Source: a virus
Length of the DNA stretch: 5,026 bases
Virus genome (UHGV): UHGV-0281922
Strand: one strand, 5' to 3'
In this document: positions 298 to 5,026 of the stretch, one piece after another
Numbering within the stretch: the stretch's first letter is position 1
Layout of the letters: every line of letters begins with the position of its first letter
Translations under genes and position numbers: made by a program
Notes under the pieces: generated by a model
Told to the model about the DNA's origin: nothing
Database searches by the model: none
The model's input: the letters and a program-made list of their open reading frames with translations, nothing else

Positions 298-344
298 TTT
301 AGCGTAAAATTAACATTATATTTGGTTTAGTTAATTGATAGGAC

Positions 345-711: not shown

Positions 712-1128
712 CTATGATGTTTTATCATCAACAACTGGTTGTTCCACAGACAGCTCTGGAAGAGTAGTAACATCTTGAGGTTTTTCATAAACAATTCCAT
801 CCTCAATTTGATAATTATCTGGGTTACTACAATATTCAAAAAACTTTTGAGGAGTTCCAAACATTTCTCTTGTCTTTTCATCCAAATGTAAAAACTTTCT
901 CTCAATCTTCGCTTTCTCATTTTGCCAATCTTCAAAAGTCCATGAACTAGTTTCATAATTATTCATATCATAAACTGGAGTTCTCGGAGTTCCTCTATAA
1001 TTTATTAACAATTGTTCTATCTCACACATTGACTTAAATGACTGGTCAGTCAAACTCTCCATTTCATTTACTGTACCACTGATTTTAGGCCAACTTTCTT
1101 TATTCCAATAGGTTGCAAATTTAGTCAT
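712..1128 (-). CDS. 138-aa acidic hypothetical protein, a possible internal scaffolding (VP3-like) protein.
   Basis: ORF from the track. It has a strong RBS AAGGAGG (complement of 1138-1144) 9 nt upstream of the ATG at 1128. It lies 17 nt downstream of the major capsid gene. It is rich in Glu/Asp with an acidic C-terminus (LPELSVEQPVVDDKTS). The function is assigned only from size, charge and position in a microvirus genome. Confidence 0.6.
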   Translation of the reverse strand: MTKFATYWNKESWPKISGTVNEMESLTDQSFKSMCEIEQLLINYRGTPRTPVYDMNNYETSSWTFEDWQNEKAKIERKFLHLDEKTREMFGTPQKFFEYCSNPDNYQIEDGIVYEKPQDVTTLPELSVEQPVVDDKTS

Positions 1129-1145: not shown

Positions 1146-2774
1146 CTATATTCTACCAGCTAAAAGACTTGGATTTGATGAAACAGGTAGAGGTCTAGTT
1201 GCTTTAATATCAAACCAAATATCAGCAATAATATCTGGCTCATCTGGTGCACTTAACACTCTATCTATAGGAGTAGCACATTGAATAAACTCCCCATTTA
1301 ATTTAGGTAAAGTTTCAAATTTTTCTGCCAAATGCCAAACATCAAGAGAACCTTCTACACCACTTCTCATCTTACCAGTAATCTTATTAATACCTTCTCT
1401 TAACTCTCTATATCTTTCTTGATAACCAAATACAGCTTCATTAATTGCTTTATCTGGAGATAAGAAAATTTCTTTATTATATACCGCTTGGTCTCCTAAA
1501 TTCCAAAAAGCAGGATTCATATAATCATACCTAGAAAGCTTATTAAACTTTCTCGCTACACCTTGTTGATATGTTACATCAGCACTAGCACAAGCTACAA
1601 TCATAAATATACCATGTTCCACTGCAGATATCTCGCATAATTCCTTATTACCTTGTCCAACTCCAATCCCTGTAAGATTTCCTTGAGGAGAGACTTCATT
1701 TGTACTTGAATTTTGAACAACAGGATTAACTATTATATCAACATTAGCACTTCCTAAATACTGACTTCTACCTAACAGAAAATCTGGACAAGTTACATTA
1801 TAGTGCATTTTAACCAACTCTGGGTATCTCTCACCAGCTCTTGCATCTCTTTCAAGCAACACTTGTAATGCGCTTGCTTTTCTTAATGCTTCAATAGATA
1901 CTCCAGTTACTTGTGACATATCAGCATATAAATTAGTATTAATACCTTCAATAGCAGTCCTTTTATCAGTATTACTTGTAACTATCTGTCTATTAGTAGC
2001 GTCAGAAATTAAAATAGAATTTTCAAAATTTCCATTACTTAGTTTATAATTCAATCTAGTAGGTTGATTATTAATAGTCACAACAGGAGCATTACCAGTC
2101 AAAGGTATCATCACTTCTTCTCCTGCTTGAGGATAAGGTAAACATGATGTAAAATAATCTAAAGGTTTTCCTTTCTTAAGAATCTTATATGTTACTAAAG
2201 TATCTTTACTTTCTACAGAGTCTCCAGATAAATTATCACCTGTATATTCCTTCAAAGGCTCTTGGAGTTCTGAAGCTCTAAACCAATCATTAAAAATTTT
2301 ATTATAGGCTCTAAAAGGTAAAGCGGATACCGAGTAGTCACAAGTTGTTCCAGTGGGCGGACATCCTAAATAGTCTCCAAGACCACCAACTGTATTCTCT
2401 GCTACTTTCATATTCAATTGAGGTACTAAATAATCTACCTTATCATCTTGCCACTGCTTCTCACCCATAAAATTCAAAAAATGTTTCCATAAAAGTCTGT
2501 TAGGTATCCAAAAAGCCATAAACTTTAATTTAACATTATCCATAACTGGGGAAATCATAGGCATAAGTCTACAAACACTTGCCACGGATACCTCGAAATG
2601 GTCTCCTGGGGATAACTCTTCCCAATATACAGGATAAATATTATCAAAATCAAAACAAGTTTTTAATCCTTCTGATAAATTAAAAGTTGACTTCATACCT
2701 TTTGCTTGTGGTAATATGTTACTATCAAGTATTACCTTATCAGGCATCTTCATACTAAATTGTACATTGTTCAT
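1146..2774 (-). CDS. VP1: Major capsid protein (Microviridae VP1 / phiX174 F-like), 542 aa.
   Basis: ORF from the track. Its size and N-terminal region (FSMKMP...TFNLSEGLKTCFDFDNIYPVYWEELSPGDHFEVS with the PGD motif) are characteristic of gokushovirus-type VP1 capsid proteins. It follows GGAAGGAGAG (complement of 2783-2792). Confidence 0.92.
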   Translation of the reverse strand: MNNVQFSMKMPDKVILDSNILPQAKGMKSTFNLSEGLKTCFDFDNIYPVYWEELSPGDHFEVSVASVCRLMPMISPVMDNVKLKFMAFWIPNRLLWKHFLNFMGEKQWQDDKVDYLVPQLNMKVAENTVGGLGDYLGCPPTGTTCDYSVSALPFRAYNKIFNDWFRASELQEPLKEYTGDNLSGDSVESKDTLVTYKILKKGKPLDYFTSCLPYPQAGEEVMIPLTGNAPVVTINNQPTRLNYKLSNGNFENSILISDATNRQIVTSNTDKRTAIEGINTNLYADMSQVTGVSIEALRKASALQVLLERDARAGERYPELVKMHYNVTCPDFLLGRSQYLGSANVDIIVNPVVQNSSTNEVSPQGNLTGIGVGQGNKELCEISAVEHGIFMIVACASADVTYQQGVARKFNKLSRYDYMNPAFWNLGDQAVYNKEIFLSPDKAINEAVFGYQERYRELREGINKITGKMRSGVEGSLDVWHLAEKFETLPKLNGEFIQCATPIDRVLSAPDEPDIIADIWFDIKATRPLPVSSNPSLLAGRI

Positions 2775-2777
2775 ACC

Positions 2778-2876
2778 TTAAAACACTCTCCTTCCACCTC
2801 TTGTATATGGTACAAAAGCTTGTTGATATAAAAAGGTTCTACTAAATTGTACTCTTCTTGCTCTATTAATTCTCAT
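2778..2876 (-). CDS. 32-aa arginine-rich basic peptide, a putative DNA-binding / packaging protein (phiX174 J-like by position and composition).
   Basis: Manual translation gives MRINRARRVQFSRTFLYQQAFVPYTRGGRRVF, with 8 Arg in 32 aa. The ATG at 2876-2874 is preceded by AAAGGAGAG (complement of 2883-2891) with an 8-nt spacer. The stop TAA at 2780-2778 lies 3 nt before the VP1 ATG. It is not in the track because it is too short. Confidence 0.5.
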   Translation of the reverse strand: MRINRARRVQFSRTFLYQQAFVPYTRGGRRVF

Positions 2877-2893
2877 TATCTTCACTCTCCTTT

Positions 2894-3040
2894 TTATTTT
2901 TCAATTTCTTTAATTGCTTTAACACTACGAGTAATAAATTCAGAAAATGACAAATTGAACTCTTCATCTTTAATATATCCTCCATTCTTTAATTTTCTTA
3001 ATGTATAATATCCAATTACCAAATCAATAACATCTTTCAT
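2894..3040 (-). CDS. 48-aa hypothetical protein.
   Basis: Manual translation gives MKDVIDLVIGYYTLRKLKNGGYIKDEEFNLSFSEFITRSVKAIKEIEK. Its ATG (3040-3038) overlaps the VP2 stop TGA (3039-3037) in an ATGA arrangement. AGGAGA lies about 11 nt upstream, inside the VP2 3' end. The stop is TAA at 2896-2894. Confidence 0.45.
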   Translation of the reverse strand: MKDVIDLVIGYYTLRKLKNGGYIKDEEFNLSFSEFITRSVKAIKEIEK

Positions 3041-3780
3041 TTGTTATAATTTCTCCTTTCTCTATTTTTCTTACTCTCATTCCACCACTTTTTAACAGAA
3101 TTAGCAATATTCTTAGCAGTAGTACCTAAACCAGCCATTCCAGCACTAACAATCCTAGAAGGACTAGAGCCAATATCAGCAACTTTCTCAGTATATTTTG
3201 CATCAGGATTCTCATTATAAAAATCAATATCAAAATCCATCAACTGAATTTTTCTTTTAGCTTCTTCTGTTGACATCTTAACATTCTCTCTTTGAGCTTG
3301 TTTCACCAAAACATTAGCCTTAGCGTCAAGTGTTTGAGCTTCATTTAAAGCCCTAATTGTTTTAGCATTTAATATATTCTGTCTTTGTAACTCTGCTTCA
3401 GTTCTAAGCTTATCAGCCTTTACATCAAAAATACTATTTTCTTGTTTTATTGCCTTTGTCTGTTCATCAATCTGTCTAGCCTGTGCATTTGCTACCTTAG
3501 CAGAAGAAAGAGCGGTCAACCACTGAGGGTCAAACCGCTCAATCTGTGCTTGAGAACCAGCAGGAGTACTTGCTCCACTACTTACATTATCAACCGCAAG
3601 TAAAGGATTCAATCCAGAACTCCTTAAATCTGCCATACGACGACTTATAGAAGTATTACTCATTTGCTCCTGCCATTCTCTATTCTTTTGTGCTTCATCT
3701 TTAGCACTATTATTACCAAGTATTGTTGAAGCAATACCGCCAATAGCACCAGCGATACCGCCAAATAATCCCATAAACAT
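3037..3780 (-). CDS. VP2: Minor capsid / DNA pilot protein (Microviridae VP2 / phiX174 H-like).
   Basis: ORF from the track (3037..3783, where the 3783 codon is GTG). It has a Gly-rich hydrophobic N-terminus (MFMGLFGGIAGAIGGIAS), an SSGLNPLLA motif and a long Q/A/K-rich coiled-coil-like middle. The ATG at 3780 is the stop-overlap partner (TGATG) of the upstream 31-aa ORF. A further ATG at 3774 has ideal spacing to AAGAGGTG (3781-3788). The start is therefore one of 3783, 3780 or 3774. Confidence 0.85.
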   Translation of the reverse strand: MFMGLFGGIAGAIGGIASTILGNNSAKDEAQKNREWQEQMSNTSISRRMADLRSSGLNPLLAVDNVSSGASTPAGSQAQIERFDPQWLTALSSAKVANAQARQIDEQTKAIKQENSIFDVKADKLRTEAELQRQNILNAKTIRALNEAQTLDAKANVLVKQAQRENVKMSTEEAKRKIQLMDFDIDFYNENPDAKYTEKVADIGSSPSRIVSAGMAGLGTTAKNIANSVKKWWNESKKNRERRNYNK

Positions 3781-3875
3781 CACCTCTTAAAAAAGTTTCT
3801 AATAAATCTTATCAATTTAAAAATACCAAATAAAAATACAATTCCTAAAATAGAAAACATTAAACTAATTGACAT
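3780..3875 (-). CDS. 31-aa small membrane peptide (one hydrophobic TM segment plus a basic C-terminus), a candidate lysis/membrane protein.
   Basis: Manual translation gives MSISLMFSILGIVFLFGIFKLIRFIRNFFKR. The ATG at 3875-3873 is preceded by TAAGAGGTG (complement of 3882-3890) with a 6-nt spacer. The stop TGA at 3782-3780 overlaps the VP2 ATG (TGATG). It is not in the track because it is too short. Confidence 0.45.
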   Translation of the reverse strand: MSISLMFSILGIVFLFGIFKLIRFIRNFFKR

Positions 3876-3887
3876 ACATATCACCTC

Positions 3888-3986
3888 TTATGGTAATTGT
3901 AGCACAACTTCTGCTATTTTCCAAAGAAAAAATAAACAACTCATTAATCCCAAGACCATAGCAAAATTTTTAAAGAATGATTCCAT
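3888..3986 (-). CDS. 32-aa small hydrophobic membrane peptide, a candidate lysis/membrane protein.
   Basis: Manual translation gives MESFFKNFAMVLGLMSCLFFLWKIAEVVLQLP. The ATG at 3986-3984 is preceded by a perfect AAGGAGGTG (complement of 3992-4000) with a 5-nt spacer, 54 nt downstream of the Rep stop. The stop TAA (3890-3888) overlaps the RBS of the next small ORF. Confidence 0.5.
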   Translation of the reverse strand: MESFFKNFAMVLGLMSCLFFLWKIAEVVLQLP

Positions 3987-4040
3987 ATAAACACCTCCTT
4001 TAATTGAGCATTTTTTATCCAATTGCCAATGTGCAAATTT

Positions 4041-4982
4041 TTATCTATTTTTATTCTTAAAAGAATTATAGATTTCTCTTCTAATTTTTCCCTGTTCCAC
4101 ATGATAGTCATATATTTCTGTCCAATGTAAACCATACTTTTGTTGTATCTCCTTATTGGATTCAAAAATATAATCTTCCATTCTCCGTCTATACTCTAAG
4201 TACATTTCATTCAAATGAATATCACTGGAATTTTCAGCATATTTTAAAAAACTTTTAGGAATTCCAAGCTTTTGACCTCTAGAATCATATATAAATCCAT
4301 TAGTCAAAATTTGTTGATAATTTTCAAGAAAATAATCTATTCCTAAAATCTTTTTTGGATATACTACATAAGGTTTTCTTACTACCTTACCATTGACTAC
4401 AAAGTCATCTGATTTAATCTCTGAAAATTTAGTAATATACTTAACCATATAAGGAGCAGTATGTTCATTAACATCTCCAACATCAACAAACCCAGCTTTC
4501 CAAACAGATTCAAGAAATTTTGATTTATAACAATTATAACCTTTCTTTGACTTATAAAAATATTTTAGGTCTGAAGGTTTATAGCCAAACATTATCATAT
4601 GAAAATGAGGTCTACCATTTTTTTCTCCATACTCTCCAGATACTAAATATTTTATTTTACCTTCAAATCCATGATATTCTAACTTCCTTCTAAGTCTCTT
4701 CATAAATTTTTGAAAATAGGTATGATTTAAAGAACCATTAGGGAATACCTCTTCCAAATGTTCATCATCTACTGTAAGAGTTAAAAAACATATCTCATTA
4801 TAACTATATTTTGTAAGTTCATATCTTACTCTTTGAGCAAGTGAAGTCCTCCATTTCTTTTTACACTCTGGACACTTACCACAAGGAACAATAACACTTC
4901 TAGTAATATCAGCATCTTTAGGATTGAACATATATTTATGCTCTGCTCTATCCCAATAGATTTTTAAAGGAGACATACACAT
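4041..4982 (-). CDS. VP4: Rolling-circle replication initiation protein (Microviridae VP4 / gene A-like HUH endonuclease), 313 aa.
   Basis: ORF from the track. It has motif I ICFLTLT, motif II GRPHFHMIMFGY (HUH; the His codons at 4607-4605 and 4601-4599 were verified), and motif III YMVKYITK with two catalytic Tyr. An N-terminal Cys cluster CGKCPECKKK is present. GGAG lies 10 nt upstream of the ATG (complement of 4993-4996). Confidence 0.93.
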   Translation of the reverse strand: MCMSPLKIYWDRAEHKYMFNPKDADITRSVIVPCGKCPECKKKWRTSLAQRVRYELTKYSYNEICFLTLTVDDEHLEEVFPNGSLNHTYFQKFMKRLRRKLEYHGFEGKIKYLVSGEYGEKNGRPHFHMIMFGYKPSDLKYFYKSKKGYNCYKSKFLESVWKAGFVDVGDVNEHTAPYMVKYITKFSEIKSDDFVVNGKVVRKPYVVYPKKILGIDYFLENYQQILTNGFIYDSRGQKLGIPKSFLKYAENSSDIHLNEMYLEYRRRMEDYIFESNKEIQQKYGLHWTEIYDYHVEQGKIRREIYNSFKNKNR

Positions 4983-5026
4983 TACTCTTCAACTCCTATA
5001 ACATTATATCTAATACTTAAATACAT

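Follow-up and report, generated by a model that had tools for sequence, protein, structure and literature searches.

Two coupled genes for predicted membrane peptides between Rep and VP2 of a gokushovirus-like phage, a candidate lysis cassette

Two mini-genes in the Rep-VP2 gap

Phage UHGV-0281922 was analysed as a window of 5,026 nucleotides (nt), by which we mean the whole stretch of DNA under study. Every gene of the window lies on the minus strand, and the G+C content is 31%. The window is a complete circular genome, because an open reading frame (ORF) of 85 amino acids (aa) wraps across its ends. An F-type capsid protein, a Chlamydia-phage-type scaffold, Rep, a VP2 pilot protein, a single coding strand and a circle of about 5 kb place it with the gokushovirus-like Microviridae. 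The gene order is ORF85-Rep-pep1-pep2-VP2-ORF48-J-like-VP1-VP3. We focus on pep1 and pep2, two small ORFs in the gap between Rep and VP2 that overlap no large ORF. A first-pass annotation, made from the sequence alone, had described here two tandem, coupled, small hydrophobic ORFs. Its coordinates and sequences were correct, and comparative evidence shows that both are real genes. The features of the locus are as follows.

4041..4982, minus strand: Rep (VP4), the upstream neighbour of pep1 (Pfam REP_ORF2-G2P, 4.9e-22; phrog_942, 3.2e-72)
4000-3992, minus strand: Shine-Dalgarno (SD) sequence of pep1, AAGGAGGTG, 5 nt ahead of the pep1 ATG
3986..3888, minus strand: pep1 coding sequence, 32 aa plus TAA (ATG 3986-3984, TAA 3890-3888), MESFFKNFAMVLGLMSCLFFLWKIAEVVLQLP
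3890-3882, minus strand: pep1 stop fused with the pep2 SD, TAAGAGGTG, TAA being the first triplet
3875..3780, minus strand: pep2 coding sequence, 31 aa plus TGA (ATG 3875-3873, TGA 3782-3780), MSISLMFSILGIVFLFGIFKLIRFIRNFFKR
3772..3788, minus strand: VP2 ribosome-binding site, AAGAGGTGATGTTTATG, which encloses the pep2 TGA (3782-3780) and the probable VP2 ATG (3774-3772)
3037..3774, minus strand: VP2 DNA pilot protein, the downstream neighbour of pep2 (PHROG pilot-protein families, 5e-26)

Both ORFs have strong SDs at good spacing, 5 nt for pep1 and 6 nt for pep2 (GAGGTG), and the pep1 stop overlaps the pep2 ribosome-binding site, as had been noticed at first pass. GGAGG/GAGGTG sites stand before every pep1 homolog. 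The pep2 stop had been placed on the VP2 start codon. The ATG at 3780-3778 is indeed overlapped by the pep2 TGA, but it touches the SD with zero spacing, and a second ATG (3774-3772) stands 6 nt after the VP2 SD AAGAGGTG (3788-3781). The VP2 N-termini of relatives read MG(L/F)(F/L)(G/S)G (MGFLSG, MGLFSG, MGLFGG). Given these MG(L/F)(F/L) starts and the zero spacing of the upstream ATG, VP2 almost certainly begins with the ATG at 3774. Therefore, the pep2 stop lies inside the VP2 ribosome-binding site and not on the VP2 start, and the tight coupling still holds.

Hydrophobicity was measured as the Kyte-Doolittle 19-residue maximum, for which the usual threshold is 1.6. The values were 2.02 for pep1 and 2.39 for pep2, and each gene encodes a predicted single-pass membrane peptide of about 30 residues. 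Residues 1-19 of pep2 are uncharged and apolar and form a putative transmembrane domain (TMD). They are followed by an amphipathic basic tail, KLIRFIRNFFKR, with a net charge of +5, in agreement with the topology first proposed for this peptide. The C-terminal segment of pep1 is short and net-neutral.

T makes up 43% of the coding strand in the gap, and hydrophobic-looking out-of-frame ORFs are common within the large genes. The first-pass caution about composition was therefore fair: T-rich sequence trivially yields F/I/L-rich peptides, and both ORFs might be chance products of a non-coding spacer. The 266-nt Rep-VP2 gap was shuffled 20,000 times with dinucleotides preserved. One ATG ORF of at least 31 codons appeared in 21% of shuffles and two non-overlapping ones in 0.19%; at least one such ORF carried an SD in 1.2%, and two SD-led ORFs appeared in 0/20,000. 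Composition alone is no proof of genes, and the comparative evidence is decisive.

Relatives were drawn from IMG/VR, GenBank phage records, metagenome contigs and genome contigs (given here as L numbers), and the Rep-VP2 interval was inspected in 16 genomes whose Rep is 38-97% identical to that of the window. SD-led hydrophobic mini-ORFs were present in this interval in 16/16 genomes, and stop-in-SD junctions (ccaTAGGAGGT, ccgTAGGAGGT, aaaTGAGAGGTG) were found across all relatives. A uniform scan of the 16 loci gave 30 mini-ORFs, compared with 2.9 expected from shuffles; when an SD was required, 24 were observed and 0.4 expected. Together with a first ORF kept at exactly 32 codons across eight genomes by synonymous-biased change, this clade-wide enrichment effectively refutes the chance explanation. 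pep1 and pep2 are real protein-coding genes, coupled by a stop-in-SD junction, on a minus-strand message common with Rep and VP2.

More distant gokushovirus-like loci (n = 77, Rep at most 38% identical) gave a different result. Any mini-ORF was present in 8/77, with 14 mini-ORFs observed and 6.2 expected; when an SD was required, the numbers were 2 and 0.6. The cassette is thus real and confined to one clade of temperate, dif-integrating, gokushovirus-like Fusobacterium microviruses, and is not a general gokushovirus feature.

It had been suggested that ORF callers miss both genes through a length cutoff. They are indeed missed: in the L112 prophage, the gene caller leaves 11271-11518 empty. 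The cutoff is not the whole reason, because the caller does report a 32-aa J-like gene in the same prophage. Routine annotation therefore overlooks real genes of 25-50 codons in these phages.

A conserved first position and a hypervariable second position

Homologs of pep1 were found in 8 genomes, each of exactly 32 codons without indels. Eleven residues are invariant (M1, E2, K6, G13, F20, L21, K23, E26, L29, L31 and P32); K23 and E26 lie within the hydrophobic segment, and the peptide ends in Pro. Three phylogenetically independent pairs were pooled for a selection test. There were 17.7 synonymous differences at 54.7 sites and 15.3 nonsynonymous differences at 224.3 sites (Fisher p = 1.7e-6), which corresponds to a pooled ratio of nonsynonymous to synonymous differences per site (pN/pS) of about 0.21. 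This indicates purifying selection on the pep1 family. Absence of conservation and of purifying selection in relatives had been named as evidence against the genes; the mini-ORFs in all 16 relatives and this test speak for them.

In other clade members, the place of pep1 is taken by a 28/29-aa peptide (MLDKYLQY...AVAKI..F.GP), for which purifying selection was also supported (p = 0.004). Homology between the 32-aa and 28/29-aa families was undetected in profile-profile comparison (hhalign probability 0.7%). We dropped homology and kept the two families as positional analogs only. Two relatives with a Rep identity of 38% (L122 and L123) have one pep1-like peptide only, directly before VP2.

Five genomes start pep1 with ATG, L091 with GTG (3457) and L004 with TTG (1306), and L001 has ATA at the aligned start (526-528). 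The non-ATG starts may mean that a membrane peptide with toxic action is selected to be made in small amounts.

The conservation of the first position bears on a non-lytic reading, in which the peptides, mainly pep1, would be membrane accessories for morphogenesis, replication or DNA delivery. pep1 could dock Rep or VP2 at the membrane or optimise burst size; the K protein of phiX174 optimises burst size. The pep1-type peptide is the conserved element and stands immediately upstream of VP2 or the second position, even in L122, L123 and L093, and the invariant charged pair K23/E26 in a hydrophobic segment suggests a specific helix-helix contact. However, since homology between the 32-aa and 28-aa forms was undetected, the conserved property is the place and the hydrophobic character of the peptide, not a binding surface. 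The hypervariable second position also goes unexplained by this reading, which we regard as quite unlikely.

The second position, hereafter the slot, is hypervariable with fast turnover; its peptides, of which a genome has one or two, are unrelated and have one or two membrane passes. Three architectures were found: an N-terminal TMD with a basic amphipathic tail, as in pep2; a charged N-terminus with a C-terminal TMD; and a 72-aa protein with two TMDs. Even at a Rep identity of 94-97%, genomes differ in what the slot contains. L090 (94% Rep identity with the window) has the 72-aa two-TMD protein, L004 has two copies of the type with a TMD and a basic tail, and other relatives have the type with the charged N-terminus (SPEFEKFL...). 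In L093, a second membrane peptide of the charged-N-terminus type (MSEDFERFLKKV...) lies after VP2 (2559-2657), so the slot gene is mobile within the genome.

The closest relative, L088, was compared with the window in detail. The two genomes are 95-100% identical over most of their length, and Rep shows a pS of 0.16 and a pN of 0.016. The pep2 peptides have equal length and a common tail, K(L/F)(I/V)(R/K)N(F/I)FKR, and their pN and pS are both 0.42 (pN/pS about 1). Three patches drop to an identity of about 65% or lower: the VP2 C-terminal half (about 3037-3380), a stretch of VP1 (about 1960-2070) and pep2 over its N-terminal two-thirds. The pattern resembles mosaicism or diversification. By analogy with other gokushovirus capsids, the divergent VP1 stretch is presumably the surface loop, and both it and the C-terminal half of VP2 are probably host-facing, entry-related regions.

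A pN/pS of about 1 could also mean that only pep1 is functional and that pep2 is a young or neutrally drifting ORF of a T-rich spacer. The T content of the gap, the single ORF of at least 31 codons in 21% of its shuffles and the many out-of-frame hydrophobic ORFs elsewhere in the genome fit this explanation. However, in the 14 relatives whose Rep identity is 41% or higher, the slot is filled nearly end to end by an SD-led ORF with a transmembrane segment (in L093, the second peptide lies after VP2), and the other two frames of 12 tabulated slot ORFs contain 63 and 51 stops per 461 codons. Between L010 and L004, purifying selection acts on the basic tail (5.5/7.2 synonymous and 2.5/34.8 nonsynonymous), and pN/pS of the slot is about 0.5 between L092 and L108. 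These comparisons point to constraint on the slot proteins within sub-lineages. Moreover, a 5-kb genome of single-stranded DNA (ssDNA) rarely keeps 100 nt of junk. We consider it very unlikely that pep1 is the only functional member of the pair.

Protein databases are nearly blind to the pep1 family. With pep1 as query, phmmer found one relative among 1.84 billion representatives, of 32 aa and with 91% identity. Exact-sequence look-ups of pep1, pep2 and VP1 in an assembly index gave no matches, and no description of the tandem cassette was found in a literature search.

Host, lysis and other possible functions

A motif resembling the bacterial dif site lies outside the cassette.

326..299, minus strand: dif-like phage attachment site attP, ACCAAATATAATGTTAATTTTACGCTAA, matching the host dif of L120

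The dif-like motif also occurs in L088, L090, L091, L004 and L010. L090 matches the bacterial contig L120 with 97% identity over L090 1-2121, and turns from host to phage sequence inside the motif ACATATAATGTTAATT (L090 about 2100-2125). The empty site of L120 (about 9884-9911) is a perfect 11-6-11 palindromic dif, ACCACATATAATGTTAATTATATGTGGT, and adjoins a xerC/D-like gene. A DUF4429/SHOCT flank protein was uninformative on taxonomy, but NagB was not: the L120 protein shares 90% identity with its counterpart in Fusobacterium hominis, and all of its named matches belonged to Fusobacteriaceae or Fusobacteriia. L120 also encodes an S8-protease autotransporter, and the host therefore has an outer membrane.

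Similar junctions were found in a second lineage, that of L092, which has 63% Rep identity with the window. L092 lies on a 59-kb human-gut contig. Its PdaC-like flank protein occurs on many contigs, and the closest named homolog is from Fusobacterium perfoetens (73% identity). In L112 (10027-14599) and L117 (5043-9626), both on human-gut Fusobacterium-like contigs, the prophage lies between the PdaC-like gene and a xerC/D-like recombinase gene. Four contigs (L113-L116) carry the empty site of this lineage, and the junctions have the common core ATATAATATTAA. In L117, Rep is split into pieces of 229 and 57 aa, and both mini-ORFs are intact.

Thus a dif-like site on the phage, prophages at the host dif and empty sites for comparison were all found, the features of a temperate microvirus that integrates through XerCD at dif. 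Judged from these junction sequences, the phage is a temperate Fusobacterium microvirus integrating at dif. A Gram-positive host, implied at first pass, had been considered from the strong SDs, the 31% GC and the presence of L108 in a 'Sarcina' metagenome-assembled genome. The Fusobacterium junctions rule it out for the window lineage: the dif junction, NagB and the autotransporter point to Fusobacterium, with an outer membrane. The 'Sarcina' bin of L108 is a lone 4.8-kb contig. No paper linking microviruses to a Fusobacterium host was found in a limited literature search. The enterogokushovirus prophages (EC6098) are likewise temperate, gokushovirus-like and integrated by XerCD at dif (PMC7062461), but their hosts are Enterobacteria, not Fusobacterium, and their gene order differs. 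No mention of a transmembrane peptide was found in the enterogokushovirus paper (PMC7062461).

The temperate lifestyle brings in another explanation, namely superinfection exclusion or carrier immunity. From the cytoplasmic membrane of lysogens or infected cells, the peptides would block DNA delivery by related microviruses, for example by disturbing the VP2 pilot conduit, and the hypervariable slot would mirror an arms race between such phages. Cells that carry gokushoviruses are immune to superinfection, and no gene has been assigned to this immunity (PMC7062461); the peptides would explain it if this explanation is right. It agrees with a lineage that integrates at dif in Fusobacterium, with the divergence of pep2 alongside the entry-related VP2 C-terminal half and VP1 stretch between near-identical genomes, and with the intact mini-ORFs beside the split Rep of L117. 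However, just three close genomes bear on a possible co-variation of slot and VP2. The genes lie within the Rep-to-VP3 unit and are coupled to VP2, and no separate promoter is evident for them (promoter-like sites occur at chance level). The cassette also occurs in clade members where no dif-like motif was found, and the peptides have no similarity to known exclusion or defence proteins. We regard exclusion as rather unlikely, yet as a serious competitor of lysis, above all for the hypervariable slot.

By elimination and analogy, lysis is in our view the most likely function of the cassette, with a probability of roughly 0.45. The elimination rests on the gene content of the complete genome. 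Family scans of every ORF found no peptidase, muralytic, lysin or holin domain. Among the ORFs without a family match, pep1 and pep2 alone are hydrophobic enough for membrane peptides, although the N-terminus of VP2 is also hydrophobic. Since the complete genome has no muralytic enzyme and the two peptides are its sole products of this type, they are the candidates for lysis.

The analogy comes from single-gene lysis (Sgl) proteins and from phiX174 E. Known single-gene lysis proteins block MraY or MurJ. The E protein of phiX174 has 91 aa and is overprinted inside the scaffold gene D. Its N-terminus is outside, its single N-terminal TMD contains an essential proline, and its basic tail is cytoplasmic. 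E inhibits MraY and depends on the host chaperone SlyD. As with E, the context is a microvirus with no endolysin, and pep2 has a single predicted N-terminal TMD and a basic, probably cytoplasmic tail; this resemblance is one reason for the lysis reading. Unlike E, pep1 and pep2 have 32 and 31 aa, give no profile match, and stand alone in tandem between Rep and VP2 without being overprinted. Neither TMD contains Pro, and the sole Pro of pep1 is its last residue. No Pfam family matched either peptide at E <= 1, including the phiX174 E family Microvir_lysis. These comparisons place pep1 and pep2 outside the phiX174 E family. Among microviruses, a lysis mechanism has been worked out for phiX174 alone (PMC3394797), and lysis accessories of the peptidase type have been described in some members (PMC3394797; PMC9239249).

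In single-stranded RNA (ssRNA) phages, Sgl genes were successfully found by three features of an ORF: a length of 25 codons or more, an SD and a TMD; these genes turn over rapidly, and a genome sometimes has more than one lysis gene (PMC7693330). pep1 and pep2 show all three features, with 32 and 31 codons, SDs at 5-6 nt and hydrophobicity maxima of 2.02 and 2.39, above 1.6. This agreement, with the like turnover and multiplicity, also argues for lysis. Like MS2 L and LysM, the peptides are very small and have one TMD and their own SD, and the slot is diverse with fast turnover. Unlike the ssRNA-phage genes, they belong to the ssDNA realm and are not embedded in other genes, and pep1 is conserved rather than ephemeral. 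The nearest precedent in a gokushovirus is orfN of the Bdellovibrio phage phiMH2K, a hydrophobic candidate ORF that its annotators likened to phiX174 E and K. It has 109 aa and is overprinted in Vp4, whereas pep1 and pep2 are free-standing and about one-third of its size.

Two other groups of small membrane proteins were compared. Like holins and pinholins, which accumulate in the membrane and then disrupt it, pep2 is a small predicted membrane protein with a charged C-terminal tail, and the 72-aa two-TMD slot protein of L090 has the size and architecture of class II holins. Unlike holins, however, the peptides have no endolysin partner in the genome, and no holin family profile in Pfam, PHROGs or NCBIfam matched the window peptides or nine slot variants. 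The smallest known holins are about twice as long as pep1 and pep2 (31-32 aa). The two peptides thus fall outside the canonical holins. Type I toxin peptides (Hok, Fst, TisB), which kill by membrane damage, are likewise about 30 aa long, with one TMD and a charged tail. Those toxins are chromosomal or plasmid-borne and controlled by antisense RNA, whereas pep1 and pep2 lie in a phage operon. For a cognate antisense or regulatory RNA, no Rfam match was found in the window at E <= 1, which excludes described families only. The resemblance to Sgl proteins and type I toxin peptides is one of size and architecture only.

If the cassette is lytic, the peptides would accumulate in the cytoplasmic membrane after enough late expression. 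pep2 would be the effector, with its N-terminus out and its basic tail in the cytoplasm. It could block a membrane step of peptidoglycan synthesis, or it could permeabilise or depolarise the membrane like a minimal holin or a type I toxin. pep1 would be the conserved partner that sets timing, stability or oligomerisation.

Several points weigh against lysis. Neither peptide was similar to any lysis protein or family in Pfam, PHROGs, NCBIfam, PADLOC or tblastn searches. Scans of pep1, pep2 and nine slot variants against the four profile collections gave sub-threshold noise only (DUF1240 0.023, Pox_A14 0.097), and tblastn of both peptides against 50,697 phage records gave no matches at E <= 10. 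In the ssRNA-phage study, most ORFs with an SD and a TMD were not lytic upon expression in E. coli (PMC7693330). Since the phage is temperate and gokushovirus carriers are immune to superinfection (PMC7062461), the peptides could plausibly serve the membrane in another way. The pep1-like peptides always stand directly upstream of VP2 or the slot, which could mean a role linked to VP2. Most distant gokushovirus-like loci have no cassette, so it is not a general gokushovirus lysis solution and could be accessory. The pN/pS of about 1 for pep2 against L088 fits relaxed constraint as well as diversification.

The plain proposal of two lysis genes, put forward at first pass, leaves the conserved pep1 and the hypervariable pep2 unexplained. 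A more specific form of the lysis reading is a modular, multi-component lysis system, with pep1 as conserved component and an interchangeable effector drawn from at least three unrelated architectures. We consider this form doubtful. If true, it would break the paradigm of one lysis gene per small phage, and the slot variants would be natural peptide antibiotics or membrane disruptors that evolved independently and act on Fusobacterium.

Many viromes of the gut and the environment are dominated by gokushovirus-like phages, and this clade offers a testable candidate lysis pair in a 5-kb genome. Fusobacterium is a culturable and medically relevant host genus, for which the integration site, lysogen and empty-site sequences and natural slot variants are now identified. 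If lytic, the peptides would be new, very small agents that kill Fusobacterium.

Other features of the genome

The remaining features of the window are listed below.

1-212 joined to 4983-5026, minus strand: 85-aa acidic ORF, which begins at 212, exits at base 1 and resumes at 5026
2894-3040, minus strand: 48-aa soluble ORF between VP2 and VP1, sequence beginning DVIDLVIGYYTLRKLK, kept in every relative examined
2778-2885, minus strand: 35-aa Arg-rich peptide between VP2 and VP1, kept in every relative examined
2774..1146, minus strand: VP1, F-type capsid protein (Phage_F, 2.2e-135)
1128..712, minus strand: VP3, Chlamydia-phage-type scaffold (Chlamy_scaf, 2.7e-11)
694-679: terminator-like hairpin 3' of VP3, GCACCCGAAAGGGTGC, followed by a T-run
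4021..4032, minus strand: conserved 12-mer ACATTGGCAATT in the 54-nt spacer from the Rep stop to pep1

The 85-aa ORF and its L088 homolog (L088 187..444) are equal in length, and the TAA that ends the window ORF overlaps with the start of Rep (TAATG). This ORF is without a significant family match (best phrog_6245, a family of unknown function, E = 0.006) and might be a VP5/C-like replication accessory. The 48-aa ORF is without a family match, and the 35-aa Arg-rich peptide is probably J/VP8-like. Rfam (E <= 1) and tRNA scans of the window gave no matches. A promoter scan gave 27 sites, with 25.8 expected, which is chance level; a promoter-like site inside pep1 (3924-3896) is not claimed as real.

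The 12-mer ACATTGGCAATT was found in the window, L001, L009, L010 and L090 and partially in L088, and is possibly a regulatory or origin-related site. In L004, the whole spacer between Rep and pep1 is missing. L088 (Rep 97% identical) has about 100 nt extra between Rep and pep1 (L088 1415-1537); this insert encodes a 40-aa acidic, non-hydrophobic ORF (MLKKGDDNLVSIEELLKEQEEKERLW...) without a counterpart in the window.

The non-coding region after VP3 contains conserved G+C-rich hairpins (462-497, about 590-660 and 679-694). They include AGGGGGCTTATAT...ATATAAGCCCCCT, with TTGACA directly after it on the coding strand, and the terminator GCACCCGAAAGGGTGC with its T-run. The L112 prophage has a matching layout 3' of VP3. 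They may be a complementary-strand origin, a promoter, or both.

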